This document shows positions 1 through 15,110 of a stretch of DNA of 64,000 nt, one piece after another. Each line of letters opens with the position of its first letter. The first letter of the stretch is position 1. Origin of the DNA: Phycisphaerae bacterium. Its GTDB lineage: Bacteria > Planctomycetota > Phycisphaerae > WQYP01. A program made the position numbers and the translations under genes. The notes below the pieces were generated by a model. That model did not search any database. It saw only the letters and a program-made list of their open reading frames with translations, and was not told the DNA's origin. The stretch is from assembly GCA_035545015.1 (NCBI GenBank), contig DASZZD010000016.1, positions 13,102 through 77,101 of the forward strand, given 5' to 3'.

Positions 1-208
1 GGCCTCGATGGCGGAGGACGGGCTGGGAATTGTGCCGTTCCCCTCGATCGTGGCGCGGGACAAGCAGCGCGAGACCACGTTGCGGCTCGTGGGCAAGACG
101 GATGAAGCGCGCGAGCGTTTTTATGCGGTTTCGCTGACGGAGAAGCAGAACCATCCGGCGGTCGCCGCAATCTGCGCAGCCGCCACACCGCAGTCTCTCT
201 TGAAGTAA
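1..208 (+). CDS. LysR-family regulator, C-terminal part (NhaR-like), truncated by window edge
   Basis: GLGIVPFPSIV...VGKTDEARERFYAVSLTEKQNHPAVAAIC resembles the NhaR/LysR substrate-binding C-terminus. Confidence 0.65.
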   Translation, partial: ASMAEDGLGIVPFPSIVARDKQRETTLRLVGKTDEARERFYAVSLTEKQNHPAVAAICAAATPQSLLK

Positions 209-233
209 CCCGGAATGTCGTGGCATCAAAACC

Positions 234-971
234 TCATCGCCGCCTCCTGCGCAGCAGCGCCAACGCTCCGACGCCCAGCACTCCCAGACTCGCGGGCTCG
301 GGCGCGACGAACTCGACGGTATACACCGGCGAATCCCCGAGGACGCCGTCCGACGCCCCCAGGCCGTTCGTGGCGTTCATATCAAACAACTGAAATGACA
401 CGTCATACGACCCCGCATTGCTGAACGTCCAATGCTGGCCGTGCCAGTGGTTTCCCGTCGGCACGCCATTATCCAGCGGGCCAAAATCCATGGTTCCCGT
501 CACATCCGTTGTCCAGCCGCCAAGCCCGTCGGGAACGACCGAGGCGGTCACCGTCTGGTCCGCGGGATTGCCCACATCTTCCTCGGCATCCTTTGGCGGC
601 GCCGTGATCAGCCACGTCAGGGTCGTCGCGCCTGCCCCGGCGACCGGCGTGATTTCCAGGACGCGCACCCCCACCTCGTGATTCTCGATATCAAAACTCT
701 GCTCGCCATCAAAATTTTCCAGCGTCGTGATCGTTGGCGCACTCACTGCAATTCCGGGCAAATACGCATCGGCCGCCCCGGTTGCTCCGAACGTCTCTGA
801 GTATTTCCTGGTCCCCCCCACCACAGCAAAATTTCCGTCGCTCGGCTCAAACACCAACTGCCCTCCTTGCGCATCGACAAAAAAATGCACATGCGCGGCC
901 CGTACGGAGCCGGTTCCCATCCCCATCGTCATCGCCGCCACCACCCCGCCGATCACCAATTCCATCTTCAT
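234..971 (-). CDS. PEP-CTERM surface protein with His motifs (probable metal binding)
   Basis: Signal peptide from MKMELVIGG; mature N-terminus AHVHF; NHWHGQHWTFSNAGSYDVSF; C-terminal APEPASLGVLGVGALALLRRRRR. Confidence 0.85.
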   Translation of the reverse strand: MKMELVIGGVVAAMTMGMGTGSVRAAHVHFFVDAQGGQLVFEPSDGNFAVVGGTRKYSETFGATGAADAYLPGIAVSAPTITTLENFDGEQSFDIENHEVGVRVLEITPVAGAGATTLTWLITAPPKDAEEDVGNPADQTVTASVVPDGLGGWTTDVTGTMDFGPLDNGVPTGNHWHGQHWTFSNAGSYDVSFQLFDMNATNGLGASDGVLGDSPVYTVEFVAPEPASLGVLGVGALALLRRRRR

Positions 972-1147
972 AAAAACACCTTTCCAAAAAACGCTCAAAA
1001 GACAGTCTGTCTCTGCAACGCAAAAACACTTTCCTCCCCGTCCGCCCCACCAGGCCAACGCCATTTGTGAATATTTGTGCAAATTGGTGGAGGATTCCCG
1101 TCCTTTCGTGTTTGTCATGATTTTCGTGGCCATTTACGCCCGCGAGC

Positions 1148-1774
1148 TTATTGCGCCACCGCCGGATCGAAGAAGCTTATCGCAGGCGAGAACGTCTTCT
1201 GGATATCCGCCCACGATTTCGCTTCCACGTGCCCATCGACGTACAGGTAGTTCGCCGACCCGTGATGGCGTTCGACCGCGATCCCCTCCGCCAGAAAATC
1301 CGCGGGCGTCGCAAAGCCATCCGTGTCCGTCACCACGTGCACGTGATCGGCCCCGGTCGTCGTCTCGACCATGAACACCGTCAGCAGCGGCCGGGGGATT
1401 TGCATCGTCTTCACATAGGGGTGTGGCGGCAGCATGTAATCGTTGGTCGAGTAGCTCGTCGAATTCACCGTGGGATTCAAAAAGCGCGGATCCTCCGGAC
1501 AGGCCCGGGCTTTGGCGTTCAACCCATACGGCAGCAGCGTGTTGAGCCACCCGCTCGTATCCGCCGTGGAATGGCTCGGCCGGGGGAAGAACTGCTGGTT
1601 ATCCTGCTCATAGAGCCAAATCGCGATGCCGATCTGCCGCATGTTGCTCTGGCAGGCCACGGCCTTGGCGCGCTTTTTCGCAAGCGCCAGCGCCGGCAGC
1701 AGAATTGCCATCAACACCGCGATGACCGCAATCACCACGAGCAGCTCGATCAGCGAAAACCCATGCGTCCGCAT
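1148..1774 (-). CDS. Prepilin-type N-methylation / H-X9-DG (DUF1559-type) protein
   Basis: GFSLIELLVVIAVIAVLMAILLPAL, CQSNMRQIG, RHHGSANYLYVDGHVE; extra DHVH motif; GGAG before ATG 1774. Confidence 0.92.
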   Translation of the reverse strand: MRTHGFSLIELLVVIAVIAVLMAILLPALALAKKRAKAVACQSNMRQIGIAIWLYEQDNQQFFPRPSHSTADTSGWLNTLLPYGLNAKARACPEDPRFLNPTVNSTSYSTNDYMLPPHPYVKTMQIPRPLLTVFMVETTTGADHVHVVTDTDGFATPADFLAEGIAVERHHGSANYLYVDGHVEAKSWADIQKTFSPAISFFDPAVAQ

Positions 1775-1847
1775 GGCGTCTCCGATCCGAACGACCATGC
1801 GCGCACGATCGCCCTATATTGTCCGTCAATCTCGAATCACAACCGGA

Positions 1848-2246
1848 TCAGGCCATCGCCGGCGGCGCCCGGCTCCCCACCGGGAGCCCCATCCGCACTC
1901 CATAGACCGCCGCCGCCCCGTCCCGCATGACCACCCAGCCCAACACTCCCGCCCTGGGCACCACGAGCGCGAAGCCCGTCCCCACCGACAAAAATACCGA
2001 CGCATTACAAATCGCGCAATTCCCGGATTTGTCCACCGGGGCCTGCTTGCCACCGGCATTCCCCTGGTCCGCACACCCCGCCCGCATGGCGCACATCGGG
2101 CAAGCGAAAACCCGCTCCACGCCACCCGGAGCCCCCTCGGCCCCGCGCACCAGCGGAATTTCCCCGCGCGTGTGGCCGGGAATCACGATCCCGGTCCACA
2201 AAAACCACAACCCCACCATGAAATATCGAAAGAAAGCCCCGGTCAT
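1848..2246 (-). CDS. DUF2946-like protein (CxxC + C-terminal RAPP; CruR/CutF-like leader)
   Basis: Hydrophobic N-terminus ending PGHT, CPMC and CAIC motifs, ends GSRAPPAMA. Confidence 0.7.
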   Translation of the reverse strand: MTGAFFRYFMVGLWFLWTGIVIPGHTRGEIPLVRGAEGAPGGVERVFACPMCAMRAGCADQGNAGGKQAPVDKSGNCAICNASVFLSVGTGFALVVPRAGVLGWVVMRDGAAAVYGVRMGLPVGSRAPPAMA

Positions 2247-2304
2247 TCCGCCACTCTAGCAACCCGCCGCCCTCCCGCAAGGTCCTTCGGTCTTGTGCCG
2301 GGGA

Positions 2305-2934
2305 CTACTCTAGGACGCCCATCTGGACGAGCATCCACTCCTGCCTCACCGTCAGCAACTGCGTCAAGGCCGCGCGCGCTTGCGCGAGCTTGGCTTCCGC
2401 CTCCGCGCGCTCCTGGCGCTGCTGCTCCAACTGGGCCTCCAGATCGGCGCTGGTCGCCTGGGGAACCTCCACCTTGTCCGCGGAGGAGCGTTTTTCGAGC
2501 GCATCGACGGCCCGGCGGCAACTCAGGACATCGGCCACCAGCGGCTTGAGCACCTGCCATTCCTCGGCGGTCGATCCGATGGCCTTTCCGATGCGGTCGA
2601 CGTCTGACAGGCGCGTGATCACCTGGATGGCGGTGCCATCGGCGGTCACCTTGCCCTTGATAGGCTCGCCGACGCGCACGGTGTCGGCAAAGGTGGCCGG
2701 GGCGCCGTCGAGCAAATACTGGGTCGCGGGCGCCGTTCTGATGGTCACTTCGTCGCCGCTTTTGACGCTGATGGTGAAGTACATGCCGTCGGGGCTTGCC
2801 GCGACGACGGTTCCGCGAAATGAGGCCGGCTGGATTTCCTGCCCGAGGGCCAGTTGCCCGATTCCGCCGGCCGCCACCAGAGCCGCACTGATCAGGCACC
2901 CGCGCCACAACCCATCATGTCTCGCTCCCATCAT
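2305..2934 (-). CDS. Secreted hypothetical protein (OB-fold-like N-domain + helical C-domain)
   Basis: Signal peptide, FRGTVVAAS...GKVTADG beta segment, coiled-coil tail LTVRQEWMLVQMGVLE. Confidence 0.6.
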   Translation of the reverse strand: MMGARHDGLWRGCLISAALVAAGGIGQLALGQEIQPASFRGTVVAASPDGMYFTISVKSGDEVTIRTAPATQYLLDGAPATFADTVRVGEPIKGKVTADGTAIQVITRLSDVDRIGKAIGSTAEEWQVLKPLVADVLSCRRAVDALEKRSSADKVEVPQATSADLEAQLEQQRQERAEAEAKLAQARAALTQLLTVRQEWMLVQMGVLE

Positions 2935-3070
2935 GGCGAAAACCCCATACTGCGCAATGCAAAGTAAGTTTAACGCCCGGCATGGCCCCGTTATTCCCGC
3001 AAAAGCACGAAGGCCCGATGTGCGGTTGTGCGCGACATCGGGCCTTCACAGTGCTGGCCAACTTTGCCGG

Positions 3071-3427
3071 TTAGCGGGATTCCTGCATCTGGCCCGCGGC
3101 CGCTTCTTCACCCGCGCGGGACATCATATCGCCGTTGGATGCCCCCTCCGCGCCCATCTCCGAGCCGTTGCGGGCCCGGTTTTGCGCCCGGGCCAGGCCG
3201 CCCTTGCGGCCGGCGACGCGGGCTTCTTCGGGGGTGAATTCATGCGCTGTGCCCCGCTCGTGGCCTCTTTTGGCGGCCATGGACGCTTCGTTCGAGCTGA
3301 ACTCGTGCGCCGTTCCCTTTTCGTGCGCCGCACGCCCGCCCTTGCTGGCAATCATTCGCTGTTTTTCCTTGTCCATCGAGGCGAAGCCCCGAAGGCTCCG
3401 GGCGGAGGTTCGTTCTGCGTTTTCCAT
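3071..3427 (-). CDS. KGG-repeat general stress protein
   Basis: RGFASMDKEKQRMIASKGG, repeated AHEF, AGRKGG; GGAG before ATG 3427. Confidence 0.9.
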   Translation of the reverse strand: MENAERTSARSLRGFASMDKEKQRMIASKGGRAAHEKGTAHEFSSNEASMAAKRGHERGTAHEFTPEEARVAGRKGGLARAQNRARNGSEMGAEGASNGDMMSRAGEEAAAGQMQESR

Positions 3428-11038: not shown

Positions 11039-14000
11039 TCAGCCCTGGAGTTCCGCGAGGTTTTTCTCGACGGCGCCGAGTTCTTCTTCCTGCCTGGCGA
11101 GTTGATCGCGCAGGCCGCGCAGGACAGCCGCGGGGGCTTTGGCGACGAAAGATTCGTTGCCCAGCTTGTTGCGGTTGCCGGTGATGTGCTTGAGGAGCTG
11201 GTCGCGTAGCTTGGCGAGCTTGGCGGCTTCCGCGGCTTTGTCGATGACGCCGCCGATGAAGATTTGTACGTCCGGCAGGACGCGGGCGGCGGCATCGGGG
11301 GGCTTGGCGGCGTCGAGGGCGTTTTGCGCGATGGGCGAACCGGTGAGGGACTCGATCACGGTGCGCGACTGGTCGATGGCCTGCTGCGTGGCGGCGTTGC
11401 GCGGGGCGAGCACCACCGCTTTGCCCTTGGCGGCGGGATAGCTGTTCTGGATGTCGCGAATCTGGCTGGTGATGGATTGAATGATGGCGATCTGCGCCTC
11501 GGCGGCCGAGTCGGCGGCTCGGGCGTCGGCGATGGGCCAGGCAGCGGTGACCAGCAGCGAGGTGCGGTTGGGCAGCTTGCTCCAGAGTTCCTCGGTGATG
11601 AAGGGCATGACGGGGTGGAGCAGCTTGAGCGACGTTTCCAGGCAGTGCAGCAGGATCGATTGCACCGTGGAATCGCCCGCGCGGATGCGGGCCTTGGCGA
11701 TTTCGAGGTACCAGTCGCAGAGGTCCGTCCAGAAGAAGGCGTAGAGGGCGGTGGCGACTTCCGCAAAGTGGAAGGCGTTGATCGAGGATTCGACGGTGGC
11801 GATGGTGGCGGCGAGACGTGAGAGAATCCAGCGGTCTTCCAGATGCTGAGTGCTCACGACCGAGGACGAAATACCGAGGGAAGGGGTGTCTTCGGCGAGG
11901 TTGGAGAGGATGAAGCGGCTAGCGTTCCAGATTTTGTTGGCGAAGTTGCGGCCGATGTCGAATTTCGGCGAGGTGTTGGCGCCGGTTTTGGCGTCTTTGA
12001 CCACGGGCATGCGGATGTCCTGGGTTTCGGTGGCCATCTGCGCGAGCGTGAAGCGCAGGGCGTCGGCGCCGTGGGAGTTGATGATGTCGACGGGATCGAC
12101 GCCGTTGCCTTTGGATTTGGACATGGTGCGGCCTTCGCCGTCCTGGATGACGGCGTGGACGTAGACGTCGCGGAAGGGGACATCGCCTTTGCAGTAGAGG
12201 CCGAACATGACCATGCGGGCGACCCAGAGGGTGAGGATGTCGCGCGCGGTGGAGAGGAGGGAGGTGGGGTAGAAGGTGTGCAGCAGTTGGTCGTCGGGGC
12301 TGTCGGAGGTGCCGGTGGCGGGCCAGCCCATGGTGGAGATTGGCCAGAGGGCGGAGGAGAACCAGGTGTCGAGGACGTCGGGGTCCTGCTGATAACCAAG
12401 CTTTTCTAGGTCACGCTCCTTATCCGGATTACCGGGTGCAACGGCAGTCCAGAGATACCAATTCCCTGCATCGTCGCGAAGTGCTCGAGTCCACGAGTGC
12501 CACTGATCCGTAGGACTTTTGCTTGTTCCGTAATGCACGTCTCCGCGACGGACTCCTTCCGCTGCTTGCACGCCCCAATTCGGAATATTGGTTTCAATAA
12601 ACCATTTATCGTTCTCTGTGGCAGGGCCATGCCACACGGGGATGCGATGCCCCCACCAGAGTTGGCGGGAGATGCACCAGTCGCGTTTTTGGCCGAGCCA
12701 GTCGAGGTAGCCTTTGGCGTAGCGGTCGGGGGTGATTTTGACACGGCCATCGGTGACGGCGTCCATGGCGGCCTGCGCGAGGCCGGAGGCGCGCTCGCCA
12801 TTGGCGAGGGTAATCCCAACCCCATCAGAGCCGCGACCGTGAGGGAGCGGTTGCAGCGAAGCGGCAAATTGCTCTCGATCGAGGTAAGCGCCGCTGAGAT
12901 TTTCCCCTTGCTTGTGCAGCGTATAATCCGCGGCTCCGGCAATGTCCTCTTCCTTCCAGAGGTAGGGCGTCGACCCGTGACGACTCCAGACCTTTGCATC
13001 CGCGGAGACCAATTCTGCTTCGCGCAAGCGGCGGGTGGCATACGACTTGAAATCGTTCATCATCTTCTCGGGGGAAGCGTCTCCCGAAACCACGGCATGT
13101 ACGTGGGTGGAACGCACATTGACCGCGTGGATCATCCATCCTCGGTGCTTTGCCACTTCTACCATTGTTTGGCAGATGGTTTGGCGTTGTTGTTCGGACA
13201 AGACCACGGGAGCACTTTTGGCGTTGGCCATTTCGCGTGCGAACAGCTCTGGATCGGGTGCGACGAAAGGTGTTCCGTAGTCGTTGTGATCGGCATCGAC
13301 GGAACCTGGTTCTTCGCCGCGGAGCCAGGTCGCGTAGGTGTGGAAGGTCAGGAAATAGGCGAGGGCGTTGGCGGAGGAAGGGTGTGCGCCCGGAGATTGC
13401 TCACGCAAACCGCTTCCTGACGGGCGCGGCTCTGATGGGGACGGCTCCATGATGTCGCCCATGCGGACGAACCATTGGTCGCTCAGGTAGGGTTCAATGG
13501 GCGTTTTGCTGCGGTCGCTGTGGCCGACTTCGTGTTCGTGCGGTTTCACCTCGGCGATGAGGCCGAGGGCTTCGAGGTCGGCGAGCACCGCCTTGCGCGC
13601 GGCGCTGGCGAATTTCAGGCCCGCATAAGAGTATTGCTTGCCCAAAAAGACTCCTGACCCCTTTTCGTTGACTTTGCCGTCGGGGGTGAGCAGGTTGATC
13701 TGTTCGAGGTGGTGGCGGACGCCGGTCGCGTAGTCGTTGGGATCGTGGGCGGGCGTGACTTTCACGACGCCGGTGCCGAAGGAAGGATCGACCAGCAGGC
13801 CGTCGGTGATGATGGGAATTCTGCGGCCCACCAGCGGCACGATCACGTGCTTGCCGTGGAGATGCGTGTAGCGTTCATCGTCGGGATGCACGGCCACGGC
13901 GGTGTCGCCGAGCATGGTCTCGGGGCGGGTGGTGGCGACGATCAGGTATTCGTCCGGCGAACCATCGACGGGATATTTGATCGAGGTCATCTGTCCTTTG

Positions 14001-14599
14001 ACGGTCTCGTGATAAATCTCATCGTCGGCGACGGCGGTTTGCAGGTGCGTGTCCCAGTTGACCAGGCGTTTGCCGCGGAAAATGAGGCCGTCTTTGAACA
14101 TTTTGAAGAAGGCTTCGCGCACGGCGCGGGCGCAGATGTCGTCCAGCGTGAAGCGCGTGCGGTCCCAGTCGCAGGAGGCGCCGATGGACTGAAGCTGCGA
14201 GAGGATGCGCGTGCCGAACTGTTCCTTCCATTCCCAGATGCGACGCACGAGTTCCTCGCGGCCCAGATCGTGGCGCGACTTGTTCTCCTTCTCAAAAATC
14301 GTCTTCTCCACGACCGCCTGCGTGGCGATGCCCGCGTGATCGATCCCCGGCATCCACAGCGTGTTGTCGCCCTTCATCCGGTGATAGCGCGTGAGAATGT
14401 CCTGAATCGTCCCGTTGATCGCATGGCCCAGGTGCAGCGCCCCGGTGACATTCGGCGGCGGAATCACGATCGAAAACGCCTTGCGCGCATCACCCTCTCC
14501 CCCAGCGACCGCATGAAAGACACGCGCCTCCAGCCACCGCTGATAGACGGGCTTTTCCACACTTTTGGGATCGTACTGCGGGGGGAGATCAATCTTCAC
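11039..14599 (-). CDS. valS: Valine--tRNA ligase carrying an in-frame HUH transposase insertion
   Basis: PPPNVTGALHLGH, ATTRPETMLGD, DWCISRQLWWGHRIP, DPDVLDTWFSS, TMSKS, C-terminal coiled coil; GTG start after AGAGGA. Confidence 0.96.
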   Translation of the reverse strand: MKIDLPPQYDPKSVEKPVYQRWLEARVFHAVAGGEGDARKAFSIVIPPPNVTGALHLGHAINGTIQDILTRYHRMKGDNTLWMPGIDHAGIATQAVVEKTIFEKENKSRHDLGREELVRRIWEWKEQFGTRILSQLQSIGASCDWDRTRFTLDDICARAVREAFFKMFKDGLIFRGKRLVNWDTHLQTAVADDEIYHETVKGQMTSIKYPVDGSPDEYLIVATTRPETMLGDTAVAVHPDDERYTHLHGKHVIVPLVGRRIPIITDGLLVDPSFGTGVVKVTPAHDPNDYATGVRHHLEQINLLTPDGKVNEKGSGVFLGKQYSYAGLKFASAARKAVLADLEALGLIAEVKPHEHEVGHSDRSKTPIEPYLSDQWFVRMGDIMEPSPSEPRPSGSGLREQSPGAHPSSANALAYFLTFHTYATWLRGEEPGSVDADHNDYGTPFVAPDPELFAREMANAKSAPVVLSEQQRQTICQTMVEVAKHRGWMIHAVNVRSTHVHAVVSGDASPEKMMNDFKSYATRRLREAELVSADAKVWSRHGSTPYLWKEEDIAGAADYTLHKQGENLSGAYLDREQFAASLQPLPHGRGSDGVGITLANGERASGLAQAAMDAVTDGRVKITPDRYAKGYLDWLGQKRDWCISRQLWWGHRIPVWHGPATENDKWFIETNIPNWGVQAAEGVRRGDVHYGTSKSPTDQWHSWTRALRDDAGNWYLWTAVAPGNPDKERDLEKLGYQQDPDVLDTWFSSALWPISTMGWPATGTSDSPDDQLLHTFYPTSLLSTARDILTLWVARMVMFGLYCKGDVPFRDVYVHAVIQDGEGRTMSKSKGNGVDPVDIINSHGADALRFTLAQMATETQDIRMPVVKDAKTGANTSPKFDIGRNFANKIWNASRFILSNLAEDTPSLGISSSVVSTQHLEDRWILSRLAATIATVESSINAFHFAEVATALYAFFWTDLCDWYLEIAKARIRAGDSTVQSILLHCLETSLKLLHPVMPFITEELWSKLPNRTSLLVTAAWPIADARAADSAAEAQIAIIQSITSQIRDIQNSYPAAKGKAVVLAPRNAATQQAIDQSRTVIESLTGSPIAQNALDAAKPPDAAARVLPDVQIFIGGVIDKAAEAAKLAKLRDQLLKHITGNRNKLGNESFVAKAPAAVLRGLRDQLARQEEELGAVEKNLAELQG
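12820..13440 (-). mobile_element. RAYT/IS200-like Y1 (HUH) transposase flanked by 33-bp inverted repeats, in frame within valS
   Basis: YFLTFHTYATWLRG, STHVH (HUH), FKSYATRRL, VWSRHGS, DY; IRs at 12820-12852 and 13408-13440 match at 30/33. Confidence 0.85.
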
Positions 14600-14618
14600 G
14601 GGGTCCTCTGCCTTATTG

Positions 14619-15110
14619 TTATCGCGGCTTGCACGGAATGATCCCCGGCACCGCATCAAAATCGTCGTCGTTGGTAATGAGATACTGAATCTGTTCCCGC
14701 TGCATCAATGCCACATGCGACGCGTCATCCGTGAGCAGTCGATGCCGGGATGCCACCTGTGCCGTCTTTTCAAGGTCGTTCGCGTCCATTGAAAGGACCG
14801 TGAGCGGCCACCGCCTCAGCGCTTTCGCCGCGGCGTGGTATCCCGAAAGAGTTGGAATAATCTCCGGCCGCCGCTGAACGTACGCCAATGGCTTCATCGT
14901 TTGATAGCGCGTGTGCACTTCCGACAACATCACACGATGCAACGTCTCAGACAGCACTGCCGGGCTGACGAAGCCGGCTACGTCGCCGTTTTCCATCCGC
15001 CTGACAAAAGCTTCGCTTGGCGCAGAGAACGTTGGATTCTGCGTAAAGTTGTAGACCAGGATGTTCGCGTCGACAAAGCACCGCGCGCCCGAAGGCGGTT
15101 CAGGCGTCAT
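14619..15110 (-). CDS. PIN-domain (VapC-like) toxin
   Basis: FVDANILVY, VLSE, LLTDDASHVA, LITNDDDFD acidic PIN motifs. Confidence 0.9.
   Translation of the reverse strand: MTPEPPSGARCFVDANILVYNFTQNPTFSAPSEAFVRRMENGDVAGFVSPAVLSETLHRVMLSEVHTRYQTMKPLAYVQRRPEIIPTLSGYHAAAKALRRWPLTVLSMDANDLEKTAQVASRHRLLTDDASHVALMQREQIQYLITNDDDFDAVPGIIPCKPR

Follow-up and report, generated by a model that had tools for sequence, protein, structure and literature searches.

The DUF2946 family contains two members that have been tested in print, CruR (Bp2923) of Bordetella pertussis (Roy et al. 2022, PMC9426467) and CutF of Rhodobacter capsulatus (10.1101/2025.02.05.636593), both of them proteobacterial and, as described in those sources, both copper-responsive. 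According to the main text of Roy et al., the signature of the family is a CXXC motif and a RAPP motif 45 residues apart (±1-2), and 'a few' members occur in Planctomycetes. CruR is encoded by the small first gene of its operon and has an N-terminal export-type segment, a semiconserved upstream cysteine and RAPP three residues from the C-terminus; copper controls the TonB-dependent receptor encoded downstream, and the operon's third gene codes for a PepSY_TM family member. The present report describes an operon with a leader of this type in a 64,000-nt stretch of DNA from a Phycisphaerae bacterium (contig DASZZD010000016.1, positions 13,102 to 77,101), here called the window, to which all coordinates refer unless another locus is named. 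The operon consists of three genes on the minus strand that encode a 132-residue CruR/DUF2946-type candidate arrest peptide (1848..2246), a short H-X9-DG prepilin-like protein of 208 residues (1148..1774) and a PEP-CTERM protein of 245 residues with histidine motifs (234..971).

The arrest itself has been characterized in the PURE system, where CruR halts the ribosome with two proline codons in the P and A sites (main text of PMC12992588). The strongest arrest cores in that study were RAPP and RGPP, with RDPP partly permissive, and RAPP and RGPP were among the most avoided tetrapeptides of bacterial proteomes. ApdA, ApdP, SecM and the upstream open reading frames (uORFs) surveyed in the same text resemble the window leader in that they carry an N-terminal localisation signal, have their RAPP or RGPP core at the C-terminus, close to the stop codon, and are encoded upstream of a co-oriented gene. 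They differ in that ApdA, ApdP and SecM monitor Sec or YidC; the downstream classes of the uORF survey include TonB-, Cu- and YcnI-related genes. In CutF, as described in 10.1101/2025.02.05.636593, copper-induced stalling opens a stem-loop that shields the ribosome-binding site of the next gene.

We propose, with a probability of roughly 60%, that the window operon is a metal-capture or acquisition module, composed of the pilin and the PEP-CTERM His protein, that is controlled by a CruR/DUF2946-type nascent-peptide leader. The three co-oriented genes and all of the features on which the original prediction had based a metal-sensing RAPP leader were found where it had placed them. The first 23 residues of the leader include a hydrophobic segment, a probable signal anchor (residues 4-23, 2178..2237), with a mean Kyte-Doolittle value of 1.62 over residues 4-22, that is hydrophobic in all aligned homologs. 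It is followed by a PGHTRG motif (residues 23-28, 2163..2180), a first cysteine motif, C49PMC52 (2091..2102), and a putative metal-binding CXXC, C77AIC80 (2007..2018). The candidate arrest motif, R126APP129 (CGG GCG CCG CCG, 1860..1871), is located 45 residues after CAIC, and the protein ends in S-R126-A-P-P129-A-M-A, followed by TGA (1848-1850). The leader thus matches exactly the CruR arrangement, in which CXXC, a gap of 45 residues and RAPP are followed by a three-residue tail, and, like CruR, it is the small first gene of its operon, with an export-type N-terminus, a semiconserved upstream cysteine, and a long spacer ahead of metal-related cargo. The GC content at third codon positions is 0.80 for the leader, 0.81 for the pilin gene and 0.74 for the PEP-CTERM gene, so the leader, being close to its neighbours, looks coding.

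Homologs of the leader were present in Phycisphaerae metagenome-assembled genomes (MAGs), and the comparison was based on 41 loci, the window and 40 extended loci, 39 of which were parsed for motif and spacing. The 29-sequence alignment of the leader and all counts leave out an unpublished genome, G283, except for one tally noted below and the 30-locus listings. The invariant columns of the alignment were P23, H25, R27, G28, C52, C77, C80, P128 and P129. PxHxRG was found in all 39 parsed loci and in 148 of the 149 best database representatives, and C-A-[IV]-C in 132 of those 149. The distance from CxxC to xxPP was 44 residues in 31 of the parsed loci, 45 in seven and 48 in one, and xxPP was located one to eight residues ahead of the stop codon in every one of the 39. 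With the invariant alignment columns, a spacing of 44 or 45 in 38 of 39 loci speaks against a chance origin of the motifs. The C-terminal motif was RAPP in 21, RGPP in 8, TGPP in 5, CGPP in 3, SGPP in 1 and FAPP in 1, and the two unparsed loci had RDPP. Among the 149 best representatives, RAPP (72) and RGPP (49) together accounted for 121, and the spacing was 44 in 124 and 45 in seven. Homologs thus retain both the RAPP-type motif and the second CxxC, as the leader reading demands. Of the two CxxC motifs originally described, both present in the window leader, C77AIC80 is invariant and the first is not conserved: C52 alone is kept, and other homologs have CC or CPxC at this position.

With a threshold of E≤1e-3, a profile built from the 29 sequences matched 621 entries in a representative library of 1.84 billion proteins; with E≤1e-10 it matched 527. 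A profile of the MAG homologs had matches in 49 of the 401 class genomes sampled, a tally that takes in the window's own genome and G283, and in 8 of 401 sampled from the phylum, six of them in the same class and two weak. Among the genomes searched, the family is thus nearly confined to class Phycisphaerae. Assignment of the leader to DUF2946 (PF11162), part of the original prediction, was upheld by the spacing and by the homologs, 20 of 29 of which matched PF11162 at E≤10 (best 2.9e-8), and not by the protein itself. The window leader had no match in Pfam or NCBIfam at E≤1, and a search of its own genome with PF11162 returned only sub-threshold matches, located elsewhere than the leader. On the strength of the homologs' matches, the motifs and the spacing, the leader is filed here as a divergent member of the CruR/DUF2946 family, a Phycisphaerae branch that differs from CruR in its additional invariant PxHxRG and in having [TCS]GPP in about a quarter of its members.

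The conservation of the leader extends beyond the arrest core, and the invariant PxHxRG at the membrane edge, together with C52, suggests a folded metal site. The 132-residue product could accordingly act alongside the pilin as a small and stable metalloprotein or chaperone of the membrane, its RAPP tail having no regulatory role, an explanation that we regard as improbable. The fixed spacing of 44-45 residues and the invariable proximity of the motif to the stop codon are needed by an arrest peptide, not by a mature protein, and the tetrapeptides retained are ones that bacterial proteomes avoid. Moreover, the leader is always the first gene of its operon and is followed by a spacer with a median length of 93 nt over 37 loci.

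The second gene starts at an ATG at 1774, preceded by GGAG, 73 nt past the leader stop. Its product begins MRTHG/FSLIELLVV, with the cleavage motif between G5 and F6, and passed PF07963 with 30.2 bits (cut-off 21.2) and PF07596 (DUF1559) with 26.4 bits (cut-off 23.3), the latter covering only profile positions 6-59 of 268. The H-X9-DG model TIGR04294 gave 16.5 bits, below the cut-off of 19, and H170-x9-D180G181 is visible in the sequence. The DHVH (residues 143-146, 1337-1348) and RHH (residues 169-171) motifs of the original prediction were both present, the second in a segment R169H170...D180G181H182 (1229-1270). Twelve residues, F6, L8, E10, L11, L12, L21, L25, P27, C41, Y108, D180 and H182, were invariant in the 29 leader-linked pilins, and V14, I18, L29, A32, R46, L80, C92, P93, H144, R169, H170, G181 and P204 were at least 90% conserved. 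An AlphaFold2 model with a predicted local distance difference test score (pLDDT) of 88.1 and a predicted template modelling score (pTM) of 0.82 had a long α1 helix and was most similar to PilA4 (Z 6.4, root-mean-square deviation (rmsd) of 3.8 Å over 121 aligned residues), and pilins or pseudopilins accounted for 22 of the 23 top rows of the structural search. Foldseek returned nothing at E≤0.001 with the same model, and the sequences of solved structures were matched over the N-terminal helix only. By its motifs and predicted fold, the protein is a member of the type IV pilin/prepilin superfamily.

The nearest large group is formed by the DUF1559/H-X9-DG prepilins of Planctomycetota and Verrucomicrobiota, a family that lacks a known function and of which one planctomycete has 68 paralogs, including two essential ones (PMC10632474). 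The window pilin shares with them the cleavage/methylation motif, a conserved cysteine pair, H-X9-DG near the C-terminus and the type IV pilin fold. It differs in being about 100 residues shorter, so that it matches the first 54 of 268 profile positions, and in having DGH; among 25 canonical members from one Planctomycetia genome, the residue after DG was Ser in 21 and His in one. A database search found 6282 relatives at E≤1e-5, many of which may match through the N-terminal helix alone. In its own genome, which encodes two prepilin peptidases and 16 type II secretion system E (T2SS-E) type ATPases above cut-off, the window pilin is the only H-X9-DG pilin among 16 open reading frames (ORFs) with a prepilin motif.

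The PEP-CTERM protein has a signal peptide and passed PF07589 (23.8 bits, cut-off 20.7) and TIGR02595 (19.6 bits, cut-off 16), with the PEP-CTERM tail at 237-305; its genome has three exosortase genes. As originally described, it contains AHVH, here A26-H27-V-H29 directly after the signal peptide (885-896), and HWHGQH, H175-W-H177-G-Q-H180 (432-449). Eight close homologs were found, one of them on a contig of 11,242 bp, which is also the length of a contig that carries a leader homolog, and H27, H29, H175 and H177 were invariant in 10 sequences. The AlphaFold2 model is a β-sandwich (pLDDT 73.9, pTM 0.73) with no Foldseek match at E≤0.001. In a wider structural search, 24 of 50 rows were multicopper oxidases or cupredoxins by title and the rest were mostly fimbrial Ig-like folds, all of them below Z 8, a level that the tool calls common, so that a cupredoxin-like fold is suggestive only. 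Among the sequences of solved structures there was no relative, the best matches being lectins at E 0.02, and a protein atlas search returned unnamed PEP-CTERM clusters only.

The cargo of the sister loci supports the association that the original prediction had proposed. In 29 of 41 loci, the downstream genes co-oriented with the leader include one with a prepilin motif, which starts within 560 nt of the leader stop in 27 of them; in the other two, two PEP-CTERM genes come first. The gene after the pilin encodes a DUF4198 protein in six loci, PepSY_TM in one, or a PEP-CTERM protein. Twelve loci lack the pilin, one of them cut by a contig end and one partial. Three of these (L036, L037, L066) have Phenol_MetA_deg-type outer-membrane barrels above cut-off, and five (L038, L040, L050, L052, L068) have a secreted family of ~300 residues that starts HGF/YxGxRFFPPT after the signal peptide. 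These first cargo genes are followed by CopC, CopD or YHS. The HGF/Y-x-G-x-RFFPPT family has no Pfam match above cut-off, is followed by CopC, plus CopD in two loci, and may be an outer-membrane channel with an N-terminal His.

A pattern consisting of a hydrophobic run, small-x-small and then His, applied uniformly, was found in 27 of 52 downstream non-pilin ORFs, compared with 118 of 4051 ORFs of the window's own genome. In the maximum-likelihood tree of the pilins, the clades tracked the type of partner with nine label changes, the minimum possible, whereas shuffled labels required a mean of 20.2 and none of 200 shuffles was as low as nine; the clade of the window pilin spans two taxonomic families. 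Related genomes share labels, so the tree indicates co-inheritance as a cassette and is not proof of interaction. Two loci are of additional interest in this connection. In L034 (G156, the genus of the window), the leader is 84% identical to that of the window and the pilin and partner fall in a different clade with a 'GHGP' PEP-CTERM type, from which we conclude that the cargo cassette was exchanged behind the leader. In L045 (G312; L045:5538-7039), a second ORF ending ...HGRAPPTVCC precedes a further prepilin gene. The first leader, two pilins and a BNR-repeat protein are upstream of this ORF, which may represent a tandem second leader-pilin unit.

An N-terminal transmembrane segment combined with a C-terminal RAPP also occurs in ApdA and ApdP, and the gene downstream of the window leader encodes an exported, membrane-inserted pilin. 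Both features would suit a SecM/ApdA-type monitor of secretion or assembly (Sec, YidC or pilin-assembly capacity) to which metals are irrelevant. We consider this very improbable, as it leaves the invariant CxxC, Cys and His unexplained, and the sister loci carry CopC, CopD, YHS, DUF4198 or PepSY_TM, not secretion machinery. The genes downstream of the window leader encode the pilin and the PEP-CTERM protein, and no sec or yidC gene was found in the scanned cargo of the 41 loci.

The same cargo provides the clues to the metal. Copper is the most likely candidate, on account of CopC, CopD and YHS, the cysteine-rich sensor and the two studied relatives. Nickel and zinc are kept open by the DUF4198 partners, which occupy the position after the pilin in 6 of the 29 pilin loci. 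Characterized DUF4198 members, like the 'anglerases', are secreted β-sandwich proteins in which a mature N-terminal His and further histidines chelate the metal, as described for a periplasmic protein that binds Ni2+ via its N-terminal His (PMC12537917) and for one that binds Zn2+ (PMC12663993; the two examples are IsDUF4198 and Zcp). In addition, DUF2946 genes are reported in the Zur-affected czr cluster of Caulobacter (PMC4176598), and the four invariant histidines of the PEP-CTERM protein suit nickel or zinc as well as copper. That the metal sensed and handled is nickel, zinc or cobalt is thus possible, although we hold it to be the less likely case, given that CopC, CopD and YHS of the pilin-less sister loci are copper-linked families, that CruR and CutF respond to copper as described in PMC9426467 and 10.1101/2025.02.05.636593, and that the invariant Cys3-His ligand set suits Cu(I). 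The window PEP-CTERM protein had no match to PF10670 (DUF4198) and no Pfam domain beyond the sorting tail, and it differs from DUF4198 proteins in its exosortase sorting signal and in the probable location of its histidine at mature position 2. It is not a member of that family by sequence, and it may work like one, filling the operon slot that DUF4198 proteins fill in six sister loci.

Leader-like ORFs were also seen elsewhere. In the window's own genome, outside the window (C59:84412-84867, minus strand; locus L112:6416-6868), a second small ORF has a transmembrane N-terminus, a His-rich stretch, CPVC, 44 residues and CRGPP. In this C59 ORF, which has no Pfam match, CRGPP is located 10 residues before the stop, and about 135 nt downstream are genes for a TonB-dependent receptor (PF00593), ExbB and ExbD. 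A Planctomycetaceae MAG contig (JAXMBU010000007.1) carries a His-rich small ORF (L155:1729-2217) in which 43 residues separate CSVC from an RGPP located two residues from the stop, and a full-length canonical DUF1559 pilin (L155:2465-3388, PF07596 E 5.5e-60) lies about 250 nt further on. Comparison with the window leader profile by hhalign gave a probability of about 1% for the C59 ORF and likewise for the L155 ORF, which share the architecture alone. Of the 80 generic pilin loci sampled (among the matches listed), L155 was the single such case, and it hints at leader-pilin pairing beyond Phycisphaerae. After leaders of this kind, the first cargo position is therefore taken by a TonB receptor (in proteobacteria and C59), a small outer-membrane barrel or a pilin, and the existence of three alternative fillers leads us to infer, by analogy, that the pilin is an envelope-crossing or uptake component.

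In the mechanism that we envisage, the nascent leader would arrest the ribosome at R126-A-P-P129 with the Pro128 and Pro129 codons in the P and A sites. During the arrest H25, C52 and C77xxC80 would lie 45 or more residues back, barely beyond the exit tunnel or translocon, with C80 about 48 residues from the peptidyl-transferase center. These ligands would bind a thiophilic metal, of which copper is the most likely, and the binding would alter the duration of the arrest. Some arrest peptides are force-sensitive. Metal-driven folding around H25, C52, C77 and C80 could change the pulling force on the chain and hence the arrest duration, an idea that follows what the main text of PMC9426467 proposes for CruR. 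The duration of the arrest would in turn set the expression of the pilin and PEP-CTERM genes, through transcription or translation. With the polarity of CruR, arrest would persist and the operon would be on when the metal is scarce, and metal would relieve the arrest and turn the operon off. The pilin would take the first cargo slot, held by a TonB-dependent receptor in proteobacteria and in the second operon of the window's own genome, and, jointly with the PEP-CTERM β-sandwich protein and its four invariant histidines, at or next to the mature N-terminus, would capture or acquire the metal.

The intergenic RNA was examined for the connection between leader and cargo. The 73-nt region (1775..1847, minus strand) contains a GC-rich hairpin at about 1814-1791, and in the minimum-energy fold GAUCC (1849-1845) pairs with GGAUC (1788-1784) in a closing stem. 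The Shine-Dalgarno (SD) sequence GGAG (1783-1780) and the pilin AUG (1774-1772) are contained in a local hairpin (1754..1783) with the core CCAUGC-GGAC-GCAUGG (1776-1761). The mean unpaired probability from the SD to the AUG was 0.18, the lowest among 37 loci, and the spacer folds better than shuffled sequences (z -2.28, the same stability being reached by 6 of 200 shuffles; z -2.72 in a second fold). The longer region singled out in the original prediction, 1760-1900, was not notable (z -0.68). The pairing of GATCCGG (1849-1843) with TCGGATC (1790-1784), put forward there as a possible switch, does exist, with five pairs in the minimum-energy fold, but it does not cover the SD, which sits in its own hairpin and is still paired after removal of the first 12 nt. 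The switch is consequently unsupported, the ribosome-binding site lying in a separate hairpin. A terminator-like call at 1776-1761 was rejected, as it corresponds to the pilin start-codon hairpin and the ortholog does not retain it as a terminator. This hairpin (1761-1776, minus strand) is a perfect 6-bp palindrome that holds the start codon and is followed by GUUUUCG; it recurs in the ortholog from the same genus, and the U-tract does not. No common fold was found across the four loci of the window's pilin clade, nor any structure shared across the spacers of the loci. Scans of 1-3200 returned no Rfam family and no promoter site, although the promoter consensus may not fit the phylum.

The strongly paired SD and AUG of the window (0.18 unpaired, z -2.3 to -2.7) recall CutF, which is likewise an exported leader of the DUF2946 family with C-terminal prolines and the next ribosome-binding site in a stem-loop (10.1101/2025.02.05.636593). 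The same leader could thus act with the opposite polarity, in that metal would prolong the arrest and the stalled ribosome would melt the RNA and induce a module for sequestration or detoxification; a role in buffering excess metal would suit CopC and surface His proteins just as well. We judge this unlikely. About 90 nt lie between the predicted stall site and the downstream SD hairpin, which is not disrupted by loss of the 12 nt that the ribosome would cover, and CutF, with CXXXC and PPP, dependence on elongation factor P (EF-P) and a multicopper oxidase as cargo in the source cited, differs from the window family and its CruR signature, CXXC-45-RAPP. Furthermore, the sister cargo (PepSY_TM, CopCD, outer-membrane barrels and the TonB receptor of the second operon) resembles the uptake sets described in the main text of Roy et al., and it is for this reason that the CruR-like polarity is favored.

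Several observations weigh against control of a metal-capture module by a CruR-type leader. Unlike CruR, the window leader is undetected by PF11162, even at E≤10, and 10 of the 41 loci have no Arg before [AG]PP, having TGPP, CGPP, SGPP or FAPP instead. The intergenic RNA shows no clear switch, given the persistence of the SD hairpin without the first 12 nt. With 26 G and 16 C, the window spacer is rich in G and does not resemble a C-rich Rho loading site, and the 37 spacers together, with 1112 G and 1251 C, have no uniform C-rich signature; terminator-like hairpins were present in 4 of 37 spacers, compared with 1.38 ± 1.14 in shuffles. As for the cargo, the likeliest signal-peptide cut of the PEP-CTERM protein, VRA/AH, leaves the histidine at mature position 2, not 1, so that this protein misses the N-terminal-His pattern. 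Its best match in the wide structural search, a laccase domain (Z 5.5, rmsd 4.0 Å, 124 residues), does not amount to a confident relative. The DUF4198 partners, moreover, point to nickel or zinc over copper in some loci.

The histidines of the pilin also proved to be less distinctive than had been supposed. The extra His motifs are present as predicted, but they are not special to the metal setting, since 17 of the 80 leaderless loci sampled from other phyla (among the matches listed) had pilins with RH...D[GSAC]H and DH motifs; the 80 loci were found with a generic N-terminal pilin pattern and represent a sample of generic pilins, not a survey. RH...DGH/DH is therefore a trait of the wider group of short H-X9-DG pilins and not a special adaptation. 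The leader of the window's family was in none of these 80 loci (among the matches listed), and only two ORFs downstream of the 17 pilins fit the His pattern, neither of them partner-like. It is the pairing with a partner that sets the leader-linked pilins apart from other short H-X9-DG pilins.

The operon is bounded on its 3' side by a convergent gene fragment, and the upstream neighbours are the housekeeping genes DegP, panB, HPr and valS. The valine-tRNA ligase ORF (11039-14659, minus strand, 1206 residues) is matched by the ValS model in two stretches, and residues 481-580, between these stretches, gave weak matches to IS200 and repetitive extragenic palindromic (REP)-associated tyrosine transposases (E about 2e-6), which looks like an insertion inside valS.

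The regulatory principle proposed here is already known from CruR-type leaders and the recently recognized sensing of metals by nascent chains. The cargo differs from that of CruR, in which the main text of PMC9426467 describes a TonB receptor and PepSY_TM, in consisting of a pilin-like protein and an N-terminal-His protein. The word 'pilin' is absent from that main text, and neither 'pilin' nor 'PEP-CTERM' appears in the main text of PMC12992588, apart from its figures and appendices. Relative to these two main texts, the PxHxRG branch, the cargo of pilin and N-terminal-His protein and the cassette-like co-inheritance are new. The locus defines a separate, well-conserved branch of leaders, with at least 621 clusters at 50% identity and an added invariant ligand motif, and links a putative metal sensor to H-X9-DG/DUF1559-type pilins and to unannotated PEP-CTERM proteins with N-terminal His.

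The recurring association of the leader with a pilin and a His-tipped surface protein hints at an undescribed form of metal handling. A more speculative extension, which we put forward only tentatively, is that in Phycisphaerae a retractile or membrane-anchored H-X9-DG pilin and a surface-sorted N-terminal-His 'angler' protein replace the TonB-dependent receptor for the capture and envelope passage of copper (or nickel or zinc), with a nascent-peptide metal sensor as the switch of the whole module. If true, this would be the first functional assignment in the huge orphan DUF1559/H-X9-DG pilin family of the Planctomycetota-Verrucomicrobiota-Chlamydiota (PVC) bacteria. The proposed module would provide a testable hypothesis for both orphan families, the pilins and the PEP-CTERM proteins, and would constitute a TonB-independent route of metal acquisition in soil and rhizosphere Planctomycetota.

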